From assembly GCA_026014495.1 (NCBI GenBank), contig JAOZIF010000158.1, positions 1-26,510 on the forward strand: 26,510 bases of DNA, in the 5' to 3' direction. Positions 14,283-19,782 of this stretch are shown here, in pieces. Under the pieces are notes generated by a model. That model had not been told where the DNA came from and did no database searches. It saw only the letters and a program-made list of their open reading frames with translations. A program made the translations under genes and the position numbers. Numbering within the stretch: the first letter of the stretch is position 1; every line of letters starts with the position of its first letter. Source of the DNA: Candidatus Bathyarchaeum sp. (GTDB lineage Archaea; Thermoproteota; Bathyarchaeia; Bathyarchaeales; Bathyarchaeaceae).

Positions 14283-14666
14283 TCAGGTTAGGGGTTGTGG
14301 TTGTTTTGGGACACAGTTGTTGTTAATTGGTATTCGGTTTAGCCCTATGCTTGTGAGTCTACGGCAGATGTGGTTGAGGGACTCTTCTGTGCCGTTTAAT
14401 AGGTTGGCTCCTTCGGGAGTTAATGAGTAAACTTTTCGTGGACGGTAGTTGTTTAGGTCCCATTGGCTTTTGATGTACCCTTTTTCTTCTAGGACGCCGA
14501 GCATAGGGTATATTGTGCTTGGACCGAAGTAAACGCCGAAGTTTCTGCGGATGCTTGTGATGATGTTGTATCCGTGTCTGGGTTTTACTTTTAGGAATTG
14601 TAGGATTACTAGGTCTAGTAGGCCTCTCATGAGCTTTATTTGTACTTCTCGAAGTTTTTCTCGCAT
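14283..14666 (-). CDS. PadR-family transcriptional regulator
   Basis: RGLLDLVILQFL...HGYNI...FGPSTIYPMLGVLEEKGYI...RKVYSLTPEG. Confidence 0.9.
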   Translation of the reverse strand: MREKLREVQIKLMRGLLDLVILQFLKVKPRHGYNIITSIRRNFGVYFGPSTIYPMLGVLEEKGYIKSQWDLNNYRPRKVYSLTPEGANLLNGTEESLNHICRRLTSIGLNRIPINNNCVPKQPQPLT

Positions 14667-14721
14667 TTTTGTTTCCTCTTTTGTGTTTTTGTTTTACAGT
14701 TCTTCAGTTTTACACATATAC

Positions 14722-14745
14722 AATATGTCCATTTTCTGACATATT
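14722..14745. promoter_or_regulatory. Inverted-repeat operator between divergent padR genes
   Basis: AATATGTC-CATTTTCT-GACATATT: perfect 8-bp arms with an 8-nt spacer. Confidence 0.6.
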
Positions 14746-14828: not shown

Positions 14829-15278
14829 ATGTGGAAAAACCTAGGCAACTTAAATAAACACAAGCATCCAACTACAATAATACACAACAGGAAACCAAAA
14901 ACGTTGACAGAAAACGAAAAAAAACAACTTGTTCAACGCATAACCAGAAATTTCCTAGATGTACTAATTTTAAGGCTCATACAAACAGAACCAATGTGGG
15001 GCTACAAAATAATCAAAAAAACCGAAAAACTCTTCGAAATAAAACTTAGACACGGCGCACTATACCCTTTACTTAACACCTTGGAATACGAAGGATACGC
15101 CAAAAGCAAAAAAACAACCAAAAAAGGACGCGTAAGAAAAGTTTACACAATCACTCCAAAAGGAACACAACTCGTTGACGCATACTACTCTTTCCTGAAA
15201 GAACAACTAGAAAAAATGGACCTAAAAGAGGAGGCTCAAATTGAAGAAAATTGTGGCTTACCTGAAAGCTCCAGTTGA
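14829..15278 (+). CDS. PadR-family transcriptional regulator (true start possibly TTG 14904)
   Basis: FLDVLILRLI...MWGYKI...HGALYPLLNTLE.EGY...RKVYTITPKG; a TATA-like TTAAATAA near 14851 lies inside the longer ORF and favours the later start. Confidence 0.88.
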   Translation: MWKNLGNLNKHKHPTTIIHNRKPKTLTENEKKQLVQRITRNFLDVLILRLIQTEPMWGYKIIKKTEKLFEIKLRHGALYPLLNTLEYEGYAKSKKTTKKGRVRKVYTITPKGTQLVDAYYSFLKEQLEKMDLKEEAQIEENCGLPESSS

Positions 15279-15380: not shown

Positions 15381-16370
15381 ATGAAAAACAAGAAGTTAAT
15401 TGTACAAGTTAACAAGCTGCTGGTAGAGCGAAGCAAAGAAGCACTGAACCGTGCAAAAAAAGAGATTACGAACGAAAAACGGGCAAGCAAAACGATTAAT
15501 GATGCTTTCAAGTATTACGCAAAAACTTGGAACGATGTTGTGCATCCGGGATTGGTTTCAATTGGTTGTGAAGCGGTGGGCGGAGATGCTGACGATGTAA
15601 TTGCCATACAGGTTGCTACTTTGTTGCTTACTGCTGGGTTTGATGTACATGACGACATAATTGATGAATCAGAGACAAAATATGGCAAACCCACTGTTTA
15701 CGCCAAGTTTGGCAAAAATGTTGCTCTTCTTGTAGGTGACGCCTTTTTGATGAAGGCACTAATTCTTCTCCACAAATTAGAGAAGCAACTTTCTTCAGAA
15801 AAGATGGATGCGATCTGGAACATAATTGATGGTCTCTTCTTCGAGTTGGGAGATGCTGAAGCTCTAGAGGCTTCCTTGAAAAGCAATGTAGATGTTTCTG
15901 CGGAAGAATGCTTCAAGATTCTGAAAATGAAATCTTCAACTTTCGAAGCACACATGCGAATTGGTGCCATTGTAGGCGGGGCAAAACAGGGTGATGTTGA
16001 GTTGCTGGGCGATTTTGGTAGAACATTAGGCCTTTTGATCAATATTCGTGAGGATTTCATTGACGTATTCGAGGCCGAAGAACTCCAAAACCGATTCAAG
16101 AACGAGTGTTTACCCATTCCAATCCTGTATGCATTCAAGAACAAACAGACAAAAAAGACAATAATGAATTATTTTTCAAAACAAAAAATTACGGACAACG
16201 ATGCAGAAAAAATAGTTGATATTGTATTTGATGATAAGAATGTTGAACTATTAAGAAATGAAATTACTTACATTTCTAAAAGAGCATGTAACACTATCAG
16301 CCATATTTCAAACAGTGAATTAACCGCTCAACTAAAAATACTGATTAGTGGAATAATTGAAGACTTATGA
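15381..16370 (+). CDS. Divergent polyprenyl (isoprenyl diphosphate) synthase-family protein
   Basis: FARM VHDDIID (aa 89-95), TVYAKFG...ALLVGD, KMKSS and a degenerate SARM NIREDFID (aa 221-228); lacks GGKRxR and RRG. Confidence 0.85.
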   Translation: MKNKKLIVQVNKLLVERSKEALNRAKKEITNEKRASKTINDAFKYYAKTWNDVVHPGLVSIGCEAVGGDADDVIAIQVATLLLTAGFDVHDDIIDESETKYGKPTVYAKFGKNVALLVGDAFLMKALILLHKLEKQLSSEKMDAIWNIIDGLFFELGDAEALEASLKSNVDVSAEECFKILKMKSSTFEAHMRIGAIVGGAKQGDVELLGDFGRTLGLLINIREDFIDVFEAEELQNRFKNECLPIPILYAFKNKQTKKTIMNYFSKQKITDNDAEKIVDIVFDDKNVELLRNEITYISKRACNTISHISNSELTAQLKILISGIIEDL

Positions 16371-16526
16371 ATGGCGCCTAGCGGAATTAAACGCCATATA
16401 TTCTTGTTGGTTTTTGTTTTTTCTGTGCCATGTTTCATCACTAACTGTATTCATGTTCTACAAGTTAGATATAAGCTTTGTTCTACACAACTACAAATCG
16501 TTTACTTGACACTTAGTCTAGATTAG
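16371..16526 (+). CDS. Putative 51-aa small protein in the duplicated unit (copy 1)
   Basis: ATG immediately follows the synthase TGA; MAPSGIKRHIFLLVFVFSVPCFITNCIHVLQVRYKLCSTQLQIVYLTLSLD*; no SD or homology support. Confidence 0.3.
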   Translation: MAPSGIKRHIFLLVFVFSVPCFITNCIHVLQVRYKLCSTQLQIVYLTLSLD

Positions 16527-16600
16527 AATTCTATTTACAGAAATTTTGATCAATCATTCATCTAAAAATATTAACCAGCGAAATAATTGAAGACTTATGA

Positions 16601-16756
16601 ATGGCGCCTAGCGGAATTAAACGCCATATATTCTTGTTGGTTTTTGTTTTTTCTGTGCCATGTTTCATCACTAACTGTATTCATGTTCTACAAGTTAGAT
16701 ATAAGCTTTGTTCTACACAACTACAAATCGTTTACTTGACACTTAGTCTAGATTAG
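16601..16756 (+). CDS. Putative 51-aa small protein in the duplicated unit (copy 2)
   Basis: Identical copy of 16371-16526. Confidence 0.3.
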   Translation: MAPSGIKRHIFLLVFVFSVPCFITNCIHVLQVRYKLCSTQLQIVYLTLSLD

Positions 16757-16802
16757 AATTCTATTTACAGAAATTTTATCTCTGTAATGCCCCATTATTG
16801 GC

Positions 16803-18065
16803 GTGATGAGTTGTAACAGAATGGGAGAAAAAGCGGCTATAACCAAGTCCATCTTTCAGAGAGAGTTTCTTTCGGTACTAATTATAGTTGTAAACGCGTT
16901 CTCATGGTATTTTCCATTGTATATACTCTTCCAAAACGCCTTAGAACAATTTCAACTGGATTCCACTTTGTTGTTGACTGCGTTCGGAATTCAAGCTGTG
17001 GCAGCTATTGGTTTTGCAATAATTGGAACCACTTTGTTGAAAAAATTTCCGAGACGTGATCTATTTCTAACCGTTTGGATGTTCATTGGAATTATTGTTT
17101 CTGTACTATTGATTACGTTAGAGACATTTAATGTGGCATATCTGTTATCTGTTTCTTTTCTTTCTGGATTTTCGTTAGGATTAGGTTTTCCCTCTTGTCT
17201 CGCATATTTCGGAGATCACACTAAAGTTGAAAACAGGGGATTGTTGGCTGGAATCACATTCTTTGCGTCAGGCCTCGCTATTCTCTTAATTGGTTTGATC
17301 ATAAACTTTTCCACTCTGGTTACTGGAGCATTGATACTTGCTGCATGGAGAGGAATTGGTTTGCTCCTGTTTCTTCTTGTCAAATCAAAAAAGGATTACC
17401 CACAAGAAAAACAGTTCGAAGCACCCTATAAAGCAGTTTTATTCGACAAGTCTTTTCTATTATATTTCATTCCATGGACTTTGTTTTGTGCAGTAAACTT
17501 TCTTGGAGTGCCTATAGAAATTAATCTTTTTGGAGAAGAGTTGGGTTCTCTCATGCCTATTGGAGAATATGGAGTTGGCGGTTTTGTTGCATTAATAGGT
17601 GGTTGGTTCGCTGATACTGTTGGTCGAAAACGGATAATTATTGTCGGGTTCGTAATGTTAGGAATTGGATTTGCTGTGTTAGGGCTTTTTCCGGGTGATG
17701 TTCTTTCTTGGTATTTGTATATTATCGTAGACGGCATCGCATGGGGAATCTTTTCGCTGATGTTTTATCTTGTCATTTGGTCCGAACTGGCTGGAAATCG
17801 AACAAAAGAGAAATATTACATGCTAGGCGTATTACCGTTTCTCACTGCAAGCTACATACAAATATTATTCACACCTTTTGCTGGAAGTGTCGAGGCATCG
17901 TCAGCGTTTTCGTTAGCCAGCTTTTTCCTATTCATCGCAGTTTTGCCTTTACTGTACGCCCCGGAAACTATGCCTGAAAAGAAGATTGAACTTAAGCGGC
18001 TCCAGAAATTTGCTGAAGATGCGAAGAAGGCTAAAGAAAAGTACGAAAGAAAAATGGAAAAATAA
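16803..18065 (+). CDS. MFS transporter
   Basis: About 12 hydrophobic helices; YFGD..KVENRG, GWFADTVGRK (MFS motif A), WSELAG and APET motifs; start could be 16806 or 16821. Confidence 0.85.
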   Translation: MMSCNRMGEKAAITKSIFQREFLSVLIIVVNAFSWYFPLYILFQNALEQFQLDSTLLLTAFGIQAVAAIGFAIIGTTLLKKFPRRDLFLTVWMFIGIIVSVLLITLETFNVAYLLSVSFLSGFSLGLGFPSCLAYFGDHTKVENRGLLAGITFFASGLAILLIGLIINFSTLVTGALILAAWRGIGLLLFLLVKSKKDYPQEKQFEAPYKAVLFDKSFLLYFIPWTLFCAVNFLGVPIEINLFGEELGSLMPIGEYGVGGFVALIGGWFADTVGRKRIIIVGFVMLGIGFAVLGLFPGDVLSWYLYIIVDGIAWGIFSLMFYLVIWSELAGNRTKEKYYMLGVLPFLTASYIQILFTPFAGSVEASSAFSLASFFLFIAVLPLLYAPETMPEKKIELKRLQKFAEDAKKAKEKYERKMEK

Positions 18066-18070
18066 AAAAA

Positions 18071-18847
18071 TTAGAATTTTTCTACTTTTTCTGCCAAGTC
18101 TTCTAGGGTCTCTGTGAATGGGTGGTCGGGTCTTTCTTCGGTGAATATGAAGTTTCCTGCTGCGCGAAGCACTTCACAGAAGCATGGAATTGTGGCTAAT
18201 ATTGGAAGGTTGTGGATGTCTTTCATTTTTTTAGTGAACTTTTTCTGCTCTTCCTTGGATTTTAGATAGTCTACGATTACTTTGTTTATCAAAATTCCTG
18301 TTTTCTTTTCGAAGAGGTCGTAAAGTTCGCTGGTCATCCGTTGACTTCCGTTAATGTCTGAGGCGTCCAAGCTTGTGACCACCAAGACAATGTCTGCGGC
18401 AACAATCGCGTTTATGGAAGAATACTGCAGTCCAGGACTTGTGTCAAAAATAATGTAATCAAAATTGCCGTCGTTAAGAAGTGCAGATCTAAGTGCCAAA
18501 AGTCTGCCTAGTGCTTTCATTTCCCATTTTCGGTCTTTGGCTGTCATGTCTCTTATTGCTTCGGTGGATGGGTTAGCTAGTCCAACCAGTAGTTTGCCGC
18601 CGTTGCCGTTATTGTTTGTTGCATCGATTAAGACTTTGTTGATTTCACATACTCCGTTAAGGTAATCGTTTAGCCAGTAGTCTAGATTCTGTTTTTTGAA
18701 TATAGCGTGAAGGCTTGGTGCACGAAAATCCAAGTCCATAAGACAGACTTTTTTACCATTTCTAACGAATGTAGCGGCTAAGTTAGTTGAAAGTGAAGTT
18801 TTCCCTGTTCCACCCTTATATGAGTGAACTGCTATAATTTTTTTCAT
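18071..18847 (-). CDS. MinD/ParA-family ATPase
   Basis: Deviant Walker A HSYKGGTGKT, LMDLDFRAPSL, IIFDTSPG and ILINKV. Confidence 0.92.
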   Translation of the reverse strand: MKKIIAVHSYKGGTGKTSLSTNLAATFVRNGKKVCLMDLDFRAPSLHAIFKKQNLDYWLNDYLNGVCEINKVLIDATNNNGNGGKLLVGLANPSTEAIRDMTAKDRKWEMKALGRLLALRSALLNDGNFDYIIFDTSPGLQYSSINAIVAADIVLVVTSLDASDINGSQRMTSELYDLFEKKTGILINKVIVDYLKSKEEQKKFTKKMKDIHNLPILATIPCFCEVLRAAGNFIFTEERPDHPFTETLEDLAEKVEKF

Positions 18848-18852
18848 CTATT

Positions 18853-19269
18853 TCAAGTCTCCCTATCAACATAGAAGTATGCCTTGCGGCCTTCCCTTTC
18901 TTTTTTCATATATCCCATGACCACTAACTGATTTAGATAACCACTCTCTACTGCTCTGGCTCGTTTTGTTTGTTCCGAGACTTCGTCTGCTGTTGCTTTT
19001 TCTAGTTTGCAGAGGGTTACTGCGGTTTTTCTTAGGTGGTCGGGGAGTGATAGTAATGTCATTACGTCCAAAGCTTCGGGTAGATTTTCTGGAAGTTCTC
19101 TTTGGCCGTGTTTTTGTATTTCAATCATCACATCTATTTTTTCGTTTAGTTGTTCGAGGTTTTCTCTGATTTTTTCTAGGATTTGTGTTGATTTTCCCTC
19201 AATCTTTCGGTATGCTGCCATGGTTGTGGTCCTAGATGTGTTTTCCGTATCTACAGTATTGTAACTCAC
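18853..19269 (-). CDS. Coiled-coil + winged-HTH DNA-binding protein, co-oriented 5 nt upstream of the MinD/ParA gene
   Basis: LEKIRENLEQLNEKIDVM coiled coil; ATADEVSEQTKRARAVESGYLNQLV.MGY.KKEREGRKAYF wHTH. Confidence 0.8.
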   Translation of the reverse strand: MSYNTVDTENTSRTTTMAAYRKIEGKSTQILEKIRENLEQLNEKIDVMIEIQKHGQRELPENLPEALDVMTLLSLPDHLRKTAVTLCKLEKATADEVSEQTKRARAVESGYLNQLVVMGYMKKEREGRKAYFYVDRET

Positions 19270-19402
19270 AAGTTTATTAAATCTTACGATATATTAGTTC
19301 ATATTCTCAATGCGAACAAACATAACCAGAAAACGTACAACAAAAAAAATCAACTAAACAAAATAACAAGAAAACAAAATAGAAACTGAAGAAAAGGTGC
19401 CG

Positions 19403-19699
19403 CTAATAAAGTGAAGCGGGTATTCTAGCTTGCCCATCTTCAATGACGGGTAGCATGACCTTCAATTCTCTGAAATACTTCAGAACCTTCAGTCCTTTTT
19501 CAGAAACGACGTAAACTATCCTCTTCTTACCTACAGTCTTCTCTTCGACAAGTTCCTGCTCGATGAGAAAGTCCAAATACTCCTTGAGGACACTGCAGTT
19601 CACGTTAGCCTTATACATGATGTGCGTTAGCTTCAGTGGACCCCTTTGGGCCAGAACCTTGAGGATGTCAATATACATCTCGAGTTTTGATCTTCGCAT
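19403..19699 (-). CDS. Small winged-HTH transcriptional regulator (HTH_45-like)
   Basis: MRRSKLEMYIDILKVL...LKLTHIMYKANVNCSVLKEYLDFL...Y..SEKG; ATG 19699 with GAGG upstream is preferred over 19744. Confidence 0.85.
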   Translation of the reverse strand: MRRSKLEMYIDILKVLAQRGPLKLTHIMYKANVNCSVLKEYLDFLIEQELVEEKTVGKKRIVYVVSEKGLKVLKYFRELKVMLPVIEDGQARIPASLY

Positions 19700-19782
19700 G
19701 TTAACGCCTCTTGAGCTTATTTTTCTCCAATTTATATATATCATTTATGGATTCAAAGTAATGTTTTTGTGATTCATTTTTG

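Follow-up and report, generated by a model that had tools for sequence, protein, structure and literature searches.

A remodelled relative of GGPP synthase linked to an MFS transporter and an antisense micro-ORF in Bathyarchaeia: a candidate peptide prenyltransferase

To our knowledge, IDS-fold enzymes that prenylate peptides have been described only from a few Firmicutes (ComQ and PalQ), and we know of almost nothing on the secondary metabolism and cell-to-cell chemistry of Bathyarchaeia, which are among the most abundant uncultured sediment archaea. ComQ and PalQ are IDS-superfamily enzymes that prenylate the Trp of an adjoining small peptide (PMC5331326, PMC10853753). ComQ needs an NDxxx or GDxxx pseudo-form of the second Asp-rich motif (SARM), and changing its Asn to Asp abolishes activity (PMC5331326); PalQ accepts a leaderless substrate, the bare core octapeptide (PMC10853753). 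Prenylation goes unmentioned in a large 2025 survey of RiPPs from archaea, and the first archaeal terpene synthases (2024-2026 preprint) belong to a different family from the protein described here. The window, that is, the whole stretch of DNA analysed, comprises 26,510 nucleotides of Candidatus Bathyarchaeum sp. (contig JAOZIF010000158.1), in which a first-pass annotation had pointed to a polyprenyl-synthase homologue with an intact first Asp-rich motif (FARM).

An IDS-like protein with a remodelled IPP site

The gene and its motifs lie at the following positions, with IPP-binding motif definitions taken from PMC10108439.

15381..16370, plus strand: IDS-like gene, an open frame with an ATG start encoding 329 amino acids (PF00348, 97 bits)
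15528..15548, plus strand: remodelled IPP-binding motif 1, W50-N-D-V-V-H-P56 replacing GGKRxRP (alignments, family composition)
15651..15665, plus strand: FARM DDIID, intact (invariant in 108/108 relatives)
15678..15686, plus strand: K100-Y101-G102 replacing RRG (alignments, family composition; motif definition PMC10108439)
16050..16064, plus strand: SARM EDFID, E224-D-F-I-D228, a conservatively changed form of the family motif [DE][DE]xxD

With a PF00348 score of 97 bits against a gathering cutoff of 27, the protein belongs to the trans-IDS/polyprenyl synthetase superfamily. Its AF2 model (pLDDT 96.5) has the all-helical IDS fold and was aligned to 1wy0 by Foldseek with a TM of 0.84; the matches of the Foldseek search were ordinary IDS structures only. 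Residue equivalences were taken from HMMER against P. horikoshii GGPPS (1wy0), BLASTP against the genome's own IdsA and MAFFT with 100 relatives, all of which agreed, and they bore out both the intact FARM and every substitution that the first-pass annotation had listed (GGKRxRP, RRG, GQxxD, KT and the SARM). In motif 1, Lys is replaced by Asp52 and Arg by His55; in the RRG-equivalent, the allylic-diphosphate Arg is retained as Lys (K100) and the IPP Arg is gone; GQxxD has become A-E160-A-L-E163, and KT has become K184-S185. The lid loop after the SARM (GKxxGxDxxxGKxT) is 5-6 residues shorter and now reads E-L-x-N-R238 ... N-E242-x-L-P245-x-P247.

Family composition was counted over 108 IDS-like sequences. 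Beside the invariant FARM Asp, the first SARM position is Asp in 51 and Glu in 45 (Asn in 6 and Gly in 1), the next acidic position is Glu in 65 and Asp in 43, and the last Asp is kept in 106; at least 96 members have an acidic residue at each of the three positions, and many have a plain DDxxD. Position 100 is basic in 105 sequences (K100/R5) and position 184 in 94. Position 52, the K71-equivalent, is D, N or E in 82 (D64/N13/E5), position 101, the R127-equivalent, is variable, and R238, E242, P245 and P247 are new invariant residues. Judged by this composition, the motif changes are family-wide and not chance drift, and the proposed loss of IPP-binding residues held across the family of 108 sequences when set against the literature-defined residues (PMC10108439). 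Both Asp-rich motifs are kept and the IPP motifs disrupted, as in IDS-type terpene synthases (PMC10108439); the loss of Asp-rich motifs that marks the SSU type (non-catalytic GPPS/GGPPS small subunits) was not seen, the FARM being invariant and the SARM acidic family-wide.

A canonical IdsA/GGPP synthase is encoded on a separate contig of the same genome (369 bits to IdsA_Meth, its own score also lying below the cutoff of 468). IdsA_Meth was also the top NCBIfam synthase match of the IDS-like protein, at 118 bits against the same cutoff, with all 16 synthase models far under cutoff; the two proteins share 23% identity (BLASTP). In the tree, which took in no experimentally characterised synthase, no ComQ and no PalQ, the IDS-like proteins form a long-branched, Bathyarchaeia-only clade, separate from canonical IdsA (branch 0.95, SH-aLRT 99) and outside all canonical forms sampled. 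HMM scores in a 201-genome sample of the class were bimodal, canonical proteins scoring at least 280 bits and IDS-like ones at most 176, and the IDS-like gene is supernumerary and patchy, occurring in 43 of the 201 genomes. Because a canonical IdsA lies elsewhere in the genome, the score is 118 against 468 bits, the clade is separate and the IPP-binding residues are lost, the IDS-like protein is, on the sequence evidence, not the housekeeping GGPP synthase. The first-pass view that it is no GGPP synthase therefore stands, also in the phylogenetic comparison with IdsA. Homologues of greater length, in which fusions were examined as a clue to a partner, were IDS-IDS remnants only.

The transporter and the micro-ORF in the gap

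The IDS-like gene stands in a cassette whose other features are as follows.

14283..14666, minus strand: PadR_a, a PadR-family regulator divergent from the cassette (Pfam PadR, 57.5 bits; seen at this place in about 40 of the 79 related loci)
14829..15278, plus strand: PadR_b, a PadR-family regulator (Pfam PadR, 63.2 bits; ends 102 nt before the IDS-like gene)
16352..16777, no strand assigned: perfect tandem duplication, 230 bp, 1.9 copies (Tandem Repeats Finder, 100% matches)
16387..16431, minus strand: micro-ORF copy 1, convergent with the IDS-like gene and encoding MAQKKQKPTRIYGV, a polycationic peptide of 14 aa
16454..16487, no strand assigned: two TGTTCTACA boxes around a TATA-like element (exact copies; region conserved in an alignment of 14 gaps)
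16550..16600, plus strand: remnant of the 3′ end of another IDS-like gene (16 codons and a stop, diverged from the end of the live gene)
16617..16661, minus strand: micro-ORF copy 2, an exact duplicate of copy 1
16803..18065, plus strand: MFS transporter, 420 aa (Pfam MFS_1, 66.8 bits; translation may in fact begin with the ATG at 16806)

The MFS gene lies directly downstream of the IDS-like gene and on the same strand in 77 of the 79 loci, both exceptions being contig ends, and downstream in 26 of 35 deep-clade loci, where five of those without it are cut by the contig. In the 201-genome class sample, it was present in 42 of the 43 genomes with the IDS-like gene; additional IDS-like copies each have an MFS gene of their own, and the phyletic patterns and copy numbers of the two match. 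The transporter is dedicated to the IDS-like gene and the linkage is obligate. PadR_b is found directly upstream of the IDS-like gene in about 40 of the 79 loci, and in two relatives (G114 and G066) two tandem IDS-like genes precede the MFS gene.

Other neighbours of the cassette include a ParA-like/wHTH pair, and a geranylgeranyl-reductase-like gene is found near it in 10 loci. No histidine kinase of a ComP/ComA-type two-component system was found among the cassette neighbours, and no other tailoring enzyme was seen to be consistently linked. A TIGR04084 radical SAM/SPASM gene, which follows the MFS gene in 53 of the 79 loci, was ruled out as an obligatory partner; it occurs in 107 of 201 genomes, mostly cassette-free, and is absent from 6 cassette genomes, and the source genome's own copy lies on another contig among SPFH genes.

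The gap of about 200 nt between the IDS-like gene and the MFS gene contains a conserved minus-strand micro-ORF, with orthologues in 67 of 73 loci; a conserved plus-strand small ORF was looked for in the gap and none was found. The encoded peptides are 12-20 residues long, run from Met through a Lys-rich stretch and P-x-R to a short tail rich in Trp and Tyr, have a median net charge of +5 and resemble Trp/Arg-rich antimicrobial peptides. Across loci, the P-x-R motif uses all four Pro and all six Arg codons, the Lys tracts vary from 4 to 20 residues and always stay in frame, and an SD-like site precedes the micro-ORF in 56 of 67 cases (background, 16%); of the ATG-started ORFs across the motif, frame 0 had 58, frame 1 had 1 and frame 2 had 5. 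This synonymous codon turnover, together with the frame-preserving indels and the ribosome-binding site, is evidence for translation at the level of sequence, and the micro-ORF is a clear case of a conserved gene below the length of standard gene callers. Through the 230-bp duplication, the window has a second copy of the micro-ORF together with its promoter region, and the TGTTCTACA boxes, which lie in the stretch from the micro-ORF start to the MFS gene, are likely a shared operator and divergent promoter region. A palindrome is present at 14714-14728.

Trp is the commonest residue of the tails (penultimate in 30 of 66) and is missing from 27 of 67; the window's peptide has Tyr12 and no Trp, and ends Y-G-V. 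Deep and sister clades have at this place, on the same strand, an ORF of 50-107 aa, which ends in Trp in 11 of 15 cases. A Nif11 or NHLP identity of the small proteins was ruled out, as neither these nor any other Pfam or NCBIfam family model matched them. An association of active-site residue 160 with tail type tracks a single clade split and carries little weight. Among the non-IPP acceptors put forward in the first pass, the peptide gains support from the conserved micro-peptide gene in the adjoining gap and from the Trp-ending small genes of deeper clades.

Candidate functions of the cassette

Our best explanation, which we would give close to an even chance, is that the IDS-like enzyme is a peptide prenyltransferase acting on the micro-peptide, with the MFS protein as its exporter. 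It builds on the observed residue pattern, fold, separate clade, obligate gene linkage and micro-ORF coding signatures. The protein would be a soluble Mg2+-dependent enzyme that uses a prenyl diphosphate and descends from an archaeal GGPP synthase with loss of IPP condensation; its gene, the antisense gene for a polycationic micro-peptide of 12-20 residues and the MFS gene form a fixed three-part module, often under the PadR pair. Both Asp-rich motifs, Lys100 and Lys184 would bind and ionise the allylic donor, for which GGPP is the obvious candidate, the host being an archaeon. The former IPP site, with its basic residues gone, acidic residues gained (Asp52, Asp88, Glu160, Glu163) and a shorter lid loop, may present an acidic pocket that holds the Lys/Arg-rich stretch of the peptide. 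The enzyme would then transfer the prenyl group to the micro-peptide, probably to an aromatic residue of the short C-terminal tail (Tyr12 here, Trp in most relatives), and the MFS protein would carry the resulting cationic lipopeptide out of the cell or handle it in some other way.

Since about 12 of 67 tails have no Trp, Tyr or Phe and only Pro and Arg are invariant, the acceptor cannot be aromatic in every case. MFS proteins are unusual as peptide exporters, and this one is closest, weakly, to solute:H+ symporters, which also counts against peptide prenylation, as do the antisense orientation of the micro-ORF, unlike comQX or palXQ, the Tyr in place of Trp in the window's peptide, the lack of any family match for the small proteins, and the acidic SARM. 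An acidic SARM is reported to be incompatible with Trp prenylation by ComQ (PMC5331326).

In a broader and more tentative form, Bathyarchaeia may make ribosomal lipopeptides, namely leaderless Trp/Tyr-tailed polycationic 12-20-mers, prenylated by an enzyme derived independently from GGPPS and exported by a co-evolving MFS protein under PadR control. If true, this would be the first archaeal peptide prenylation system and a new minimal RiPP-like class, its product an antibiotic, signal or membrane anchor, and a GGPP synthase of primary metabolism would independently have given rise to enzymes that prenylate peptides. Hundreds of database genes labelled 'geranylgeranyl/heptaprenyl diphosphate synthase' would then be misannotated, and the substrate would be very small and easily synthesised, so that function would be directly testable.

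PadR regulators frequently respond to phenolic or lipophilic compounds, which would also suit an IDS-derived terpene synthase or small-molecule prenyltransferase, an unlikely reading in which the cation is quenched by water, elimination, cyclisation or an imported acceptor, the MFS protein takes the acceptor in or the product out, and the micro-peptide does something else, for instance as a small regulator of the transporter. The MFS protein is closest, weakly, to solute:H+ symporters (metabolite:H+ type such as MhpT) and bears a PET-type C-terminal motif, the geranylgeranyl-reductase-like gene near some cassettes points the same way, and kept Asp-rich motifs with disrupted IPP motifs are the signature of insect IDS-type terpene synthases, with the same K71D and R127Y (PMC10108439). 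This reading, however, leaves unexplained an apparently translated micro-ORF, or a Trp-ending small gene, at the exact position in three clades; volatile or neutral terpenes would need no dedicated transporter, and a further, consistently linked tailoring enzyme is missing.

Quite improbable is a non-catalytic prenyl-diphosphate binder that serves as a sensor, as a lipid chaperone from which the MFS protein receives a polyprenyl compound, or as a regulatory partner of IdsA in the manner of the small subunits of plant GGPPS. The FARM, the SARM, K100 and K184 would be as necessary for binding as for catalysis, the IDS fold dimerises, so that a heterodimer with IdsA is conceivable, and pairs of a soluble lipid binder and an MFS protein exist in bacteria (LprG-Rv1410c). 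Known non-catalytic IDS subunits, however, lack the Asp-rich motifs, whereas all three FARM Asp are present here in 108 of 108, and the IPP site, rather than drifting, has been rebuilt around the newly conserved D52, D88, R238 and E242. A fixed heteromer with a second degenerate paralogue in the genome (on contig C123) is excluded, since the two are not co-conserved: of 201 genomes, 43 have the IDS-like type and only 2 have a protein that reaches the C123 score range.

That the protein is still a chain-elongating synthase, using IPP or isopentenyl phosphate (archaeal mevalonate route) through other residues to make a prenyl chain of special length, has very little probability: the R74-equivalent is Arg or His in 76 of 108 members, Arg238 after the SARM is newly invariant and the residue at -5 from the FARM is small (A60/G39 of 108) and would permit a long chain, but an acidic residue stands in for the key Lys in most members, the IPP-contacting Arg, the Gln and the lid Lys have been lost, the scores fall far short of every NCBIfam synthase cutoff and the clade lies outside all sampled canonical forms.

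Comparison with known systems

With the archaeal short-chain IDS (IdsA/GGPP synthase, 1wy0), which we regard as its probable evolutionary source, the IDS-like protein has in common the fold (TM 0.84), the FARM and the dimer-type helical bundle; it differs in its remodelled IPP site, separate clade and supernumerary, patchy gene. The insect and fungal IDS-type terpene synthases are likewise FPPS/GGPPS-derived, with both DDxxD motifs kept and the IPP motifs lost, and share with it the changes of Lys to Asp in motif 1 and of Arg to Tyr in motif 3 (PMC10108439). Unlike it, they are eukaryotic, with proven products and no peptide or transporter partner.

The cassette was compared with ComQ/ComX of Bacillus subtilis (ComQXPA quorum sensing), whose enzyme has, like the IDS-like protein, an intact FARM; ComQ uses a prenyl diphosphate but not IPP and adjoins a small peptide gene with an aromatic acceptor (PMC5331326). 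The label of a ComQ-like pseudo-SARM is inapt, because the SARM here departs only conservatively from an acidic motif that has been retained: the family keeps [DE][DE]xxD, whereas ComQ needs NDxxx or GDxxx (PMC5331326). The cassette also has an MFS partner in place of the ComP/ComA kinase-regulator pair, its micro-peptide gene is antisense and encodes 12-20 residues with no leader, unlike ComX, and its enzyme lineage comes from archaeal GGPPS, unlike ComQ.

PalQ/PalX/PalP of Paenibacillus alvei comprises an isoprenoid-synthase-fold enzyme with FARM and SARM that prenylates Trp at the C-terminal end of a small protein (PMC10853753). PalQ lies outside PF00348 and the IDS-like protein inside it, PalX has an NHLP leader, whereas no NHLP model matches the small proteins here, PalP is a histidine kinase where the partner here is an MFS protein, and PalX ends in W where the window's 14-aa peptide ends in Y-G-V. 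The likeness to PalX lies in the deep-clade small genes of 50-107 aa, 11 of 15 of which end in Trp.

Fold, motifs and relatives of the IDS-like protein

The isoprenyl-diphosphate synthase (IDS)-like protein matched Pfam PF00348 at 97 bits, indicating a polyprenyl-synthetase fold; its AlphaFold2 model had a mean pLDDT of 96.5, and the top structural match was the Pyrococcus horikoshii GGPP synthase 1wy0 (TM 0.84). The gene and its first and second Asp-rich motifs (FARM and SARM) are as follows.

15381-16370, + strand: IDS-like ORF, open, ATG start, 329 residues
15651-15665, + strand: FARM, DDIID, within the IDS-like ORF
16050-16064, + strand: SARM, EDFID, within the IDS-like ORF

GGKRxRP is replaced by WNDVVHP, RRG by KYG, GQxxD by AEALE, KT by KS and DDxxD by EDFID. 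These substitutions, listed in the first-pass annotation, were recovered concordantly in three independent alignments (HMMER against 1wy0, BLASTP against the genome's own IdsA, the canonical archaeal short-chain synthase, and MAFFT with 100 relatives). In true synthases a GKxxGxDxxxGKxT loop 3′ of the SARM closes over IPP, the usual acceptor; the corresponding loop here is shorter by 5–6 residues, and a new motif, ELxNR...NExLPxP, stands in its place.

An exhaustive search with the protein gave 129 clusters (50% identity) at E below 1e-30, and when 185,579 species genomes were scanned 265 relatives were recovered, of which the best 79, like 35 further relatives from a deeper branch, were nearly all from Bathyarchaeia MAGs. 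In a 201-genome sample of the class, scores against the profile were bimodal (43 genomes reached 280 bits or more, canonical IdsA 176 at most), with matches concentrated in the window's own order. The family is coherent, under selection and confined to Bathyarchaeia. Residue counts for 108 members are given below, numbered by the 329-residue protein.

Residues kept and changed in 108 members of the IDS-like family
Kept: three FARM Asp, 108/108
Kept: His preceding the FARM, 106
Kept: Lys100, equivalent of the Arg contacting the allylic diphosphate, K100/R5
Kept: Lys184 of the KT motif, K88/R6
Kept: SARM position 1, D51/E45
Kept: SARM position 2, E65/D43
Kept: SARM position 5, D106
Changed: IPP Lys (position 52), D64/N13/E5
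Changed: second Arg of RRG, variable
Changed: Gln of GQ, E84/H11
Changed: residue three before the FARM, Asp in 82

Arg238, Glu242, Pro245 and Pro247 are newly invariant. Read against the six IPP-binding motifs defined by Rebholz et al. (PMC10108439), these counts indicate that the donor-ionising machinery is strongly selected and, by equivalence with solved synthases, that the former IPP site has exchanged its basic character for an acidic one and opened up.

The window's genome, a 2.19-Mb Bathyarchaeia MAG, carries four PF00348 genes. One has all canonical motifs, adjoins a type-2 IPP isomerase gene and scored 369 bits with IdsA_Meth and 348 bits with GGPP_syn; another is a complete, more divergent synthase, and the fourth, from contig C123, is related to the IDS-like protein and has degenerated further. 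The SARM of the housekeeping IdsA (locus L001 1414-2415, contig C175) reads DDVLA, with the fifth Asp replaced by Ala, and its IPP-binding motifs are all canonical. The IDS-like protein is 23% identical to this IdsA (BLASTP). A maximum-likelihood tree built from 63 sequences grouped it in one clade with 35 relatives and the C123 type, separated from the IdsA clade, a label that rests on NCBIfam scores in a set that excludes experimentally characterised enzymes, by a branch of 0.95 substitutions per site (SH-aLRT 99). The earlier proposal that the protein is not a GGPP synthase holds with respect to IdsA, given the separate clade, a best synthase-model score of 118 bits versus a cutoff of 468, and the canonical IdsA elsewhere in the genome. 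Judged from sequence, it is not the genome's housekeeping synthase.

A dedicated transporter and neighbouring genes

16803-18065, + strand: MFS gene, directly 3′ of the IDS-like gene

Immediately downstream of the IDS-like gene, and co-oriented with it, an MFS gene was present in 77 of 79 related loci, the remaining 2 being cut by contig ends; these loci, like those counted below, come from interrelated genomes and are not independent events. The linkage persists as identity of the IDS-like protein falls to 36%. Of the 35 deeper-branch loci, 26 had the MFS gene downstream and 2 had it upstream-divergent; 5 others were contig-cut, 1 was a true exception and 1 had both genes fragmentary. Among the 201 genomes, MFS was found in 47, the IDS-like gene in 43 and both in 42. 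In the sole IDS-like genome without MFS, the IDS-like gene abuts a contig end, and the five MFS genomes outside the 42 comprise one with a contig-truncated IDS-like gene, two with MFS fragments only, one with a weak 57-bit match and one with an intact MFS alone. The MFS is thus an obligate, dedicated partner. Where a genome carries two to four IDS-like copies, each has an adjoining MFS, and the C123 cassette of the window's genome has its own, 23% identical to the window's, so the pair has duplicated and diverged together. The MFS C-terminus carries a conserved PET-type motif; a search for a close characterised relative of this transporter found none. At locus L131 both genes are fragmentary, consistent with joint decay. 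At L112 the MFS is split across three frames beside an intact IDS-like gene; the assembly is from a long-read project, so sequencing errors may account for the frameshifts.

Roughly half of the 79 loci have a divergent PadR pair ahead of the cassette. The 162-nt spacer of the window's divergent PadR genes contains a perfect palindrome, ACATAT-ACA-ATATGT (14714-14728). Operators of the ATGT/ACAT type are known for PadR proteins, and this one is likely an autoregulatory operator.

Other neighbours were also recorded. In 53/79 loci (L020-L082) the next gene after the MFS, in the same orientation, is a TIGR04084 (AF0577-family) radical SAM/SPASM gene, which occurs in 107/201 genomes of the class, most without the cassette; the window's genome has its copy at G000:C190:881-1996. 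Convergent to the MFS at 18071-19744 (−) are a ParA/MinD-like ATPase, a TrmB-like wHTH and an HTH_45 gene, a trio recurring in 15–17 of the 79 loci. A geranylgeranyl-reductase-like flavoprotein gene near the cassette in 10/79 (e.g. L012 11064-12128, +) was the only other isoprenoid-related neighbour seen.

Small genes between enzyme and transporter

In almost all loci about 200 nt separate the two genes, and this gap holds a minus-strand micro-ORF in 67 of 73 loci, present twice in the window.

16387-16431, − strand: micro-ORF copy 1, MAQKKQKPTRIYGV
16617-16661, − strand: micro-ORF copy 2, identical to copy 1

Main-clade peptides have 12–20 residues, in the order Met, a variable-length Lys-rich stretch, Pro-[I/V/M/L/T]-Arg and a tail of 3–9 residues (mode 4). 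Every possible codon is used at the two invariant residues, four for Pro (36/16/9/6) and six for Arg (24/20/10/6/4/3); ATG-started ORFs across the motif number 58 in frame 0 versus 1 in frame 1 and 5 in frame 2, and the Lys stretch, 4 to 20 residues long, stays in frame throughout. The start is ATG in 60/67, with a Shine-Dalgarno-like site 4–18 nt upstream in 56/67 versus 16% at random positions. These features are strong signatures of a putative coding sequence. Trp is the commonest tail residue (40/67 tails; penultimate in 30/66 distinct peptides), and Trp or Tyr occurs in 51/67; net charge has a median of +5. Two TGTTCTACA boxes and a conserved TATA-like element, located in the interval from the micro-ORF start to the MFS, probably form a promoter region that is divergent and co-regulated.

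A perfect 230-bp tandem duplication (16352-16777, 1.9 copies) doubles the micro-ORF and promoter region in the window, and at its junction (16550-16600) lie 16 diverged codons left over from the 3′ end of a second IDS-like gene. In two relatives' genomes, G114 and G066, the MFS is preceded by a tandem pair of IDS-like genes, so the duplication resembles what the loss of a tandem copy would leave behind; its 100%-identical part may be an assembly artefact.

In the deep clade an ORF of 50–107 residues with a helical-looking body occupies the same position and strand, and 11 of 15 end in a C-terminal Trp, often Gly-Trp. The window's genome has a second, older cassette on contig C123 (locus L004).

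L004 1327-2349, + strand: more degenerate IDS-like gene that retains the FARM and has lost the SARM
L004 2353-2586, − strand: small ORF, 77 residues, same slot
L004 2673-3674, + strand: the cassette's own MFS, open
L004 783-1220, − strand: TrmB-like wHTH upstream of the cassette, paralogue of window 18853-19269

Neither the deep-clade nor the C123 small proteins matched Nif11, NHLP or other family models. A small gene at the same slot in older branches implies that the enzyme/small gene/transporter arrangement predates the split of the three clades, and the main clade appears to have retained just a leaderless core.

Candidate functions and known systems

Taken by itself, the enzyme pattern is compatible with any enzyme that ionises a prenyl diphosphate and uses an acceptor other than IPP; genomic context narrows the choice. 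Known IDS-superfamily enzymes encoded beside a gene for a small peptide with Trp prenylate peptides (PMC5331326, PMC10853753): ComQ acts on ComX (PMC5331326), and PalQ modifies the C-terminal Trp of PalX and accepts a bare octapeptide (PMC10853753). An acidic, opened former IPP pocket would be expected for a +5 peptide. By this precedent and the pocket, we tentatively favour a reading, at somewhat under even odds, in which the IDS-like enzyme would prenylate the micro-peptide and the MFS would export the product. Weak points are the antisense orientation of the micro-ORF, about 12/67 tails without an aromatic residue, an acidic SARM unlike that of ComQ, and an MFS, unusual as a peptide exporter. 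Only Pro and Arg are invariant in the micro-peptide, so Arg or another group is a possible acceptor. His160 enzymes pair with Pro-containing, Trp-less tails and Glu160 enzymes with Trp/Tyr tails, a covariation of little weight because it tracks one clade split.

An IDS-type terpene synthase or small-molecule prenyltransferase would share the same enzyme pattern, and IDS-derived insect terpene synthases retain both Asp-rich motifs (PMC10108439); with the peptide gene adjoining we consider this assignment unlikely. A non-catalytic prenyl-diphosphate binder would also need the FARM, SARM, Lys100 and Lys184, and is improbable given the invariant FARM Asp. An unusual elongating synthase, with the altered IPP site against it, is very improbable.

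Within the searched literature, no description was found of the IDS-like family, the IDS-MFS pair or archaeal peptide prenylation. The first archaeal terpene synthases, described in a preprint, lack PF00348. ComQ requires NDxxx or GDxxx as pseudo-SARM, and Asn-to-Asp inactivates it (PMC5331326), whereas the IDS-like family keeps an acidic SARM; the pattern is thus not that of ComQ, contrary to the first-pass annotation. Insect IDS-type terpene synthases carry Lys-to-Asp and Arg-to-Tyr changes at the same positions as the IDS-like family (PMC10108439).
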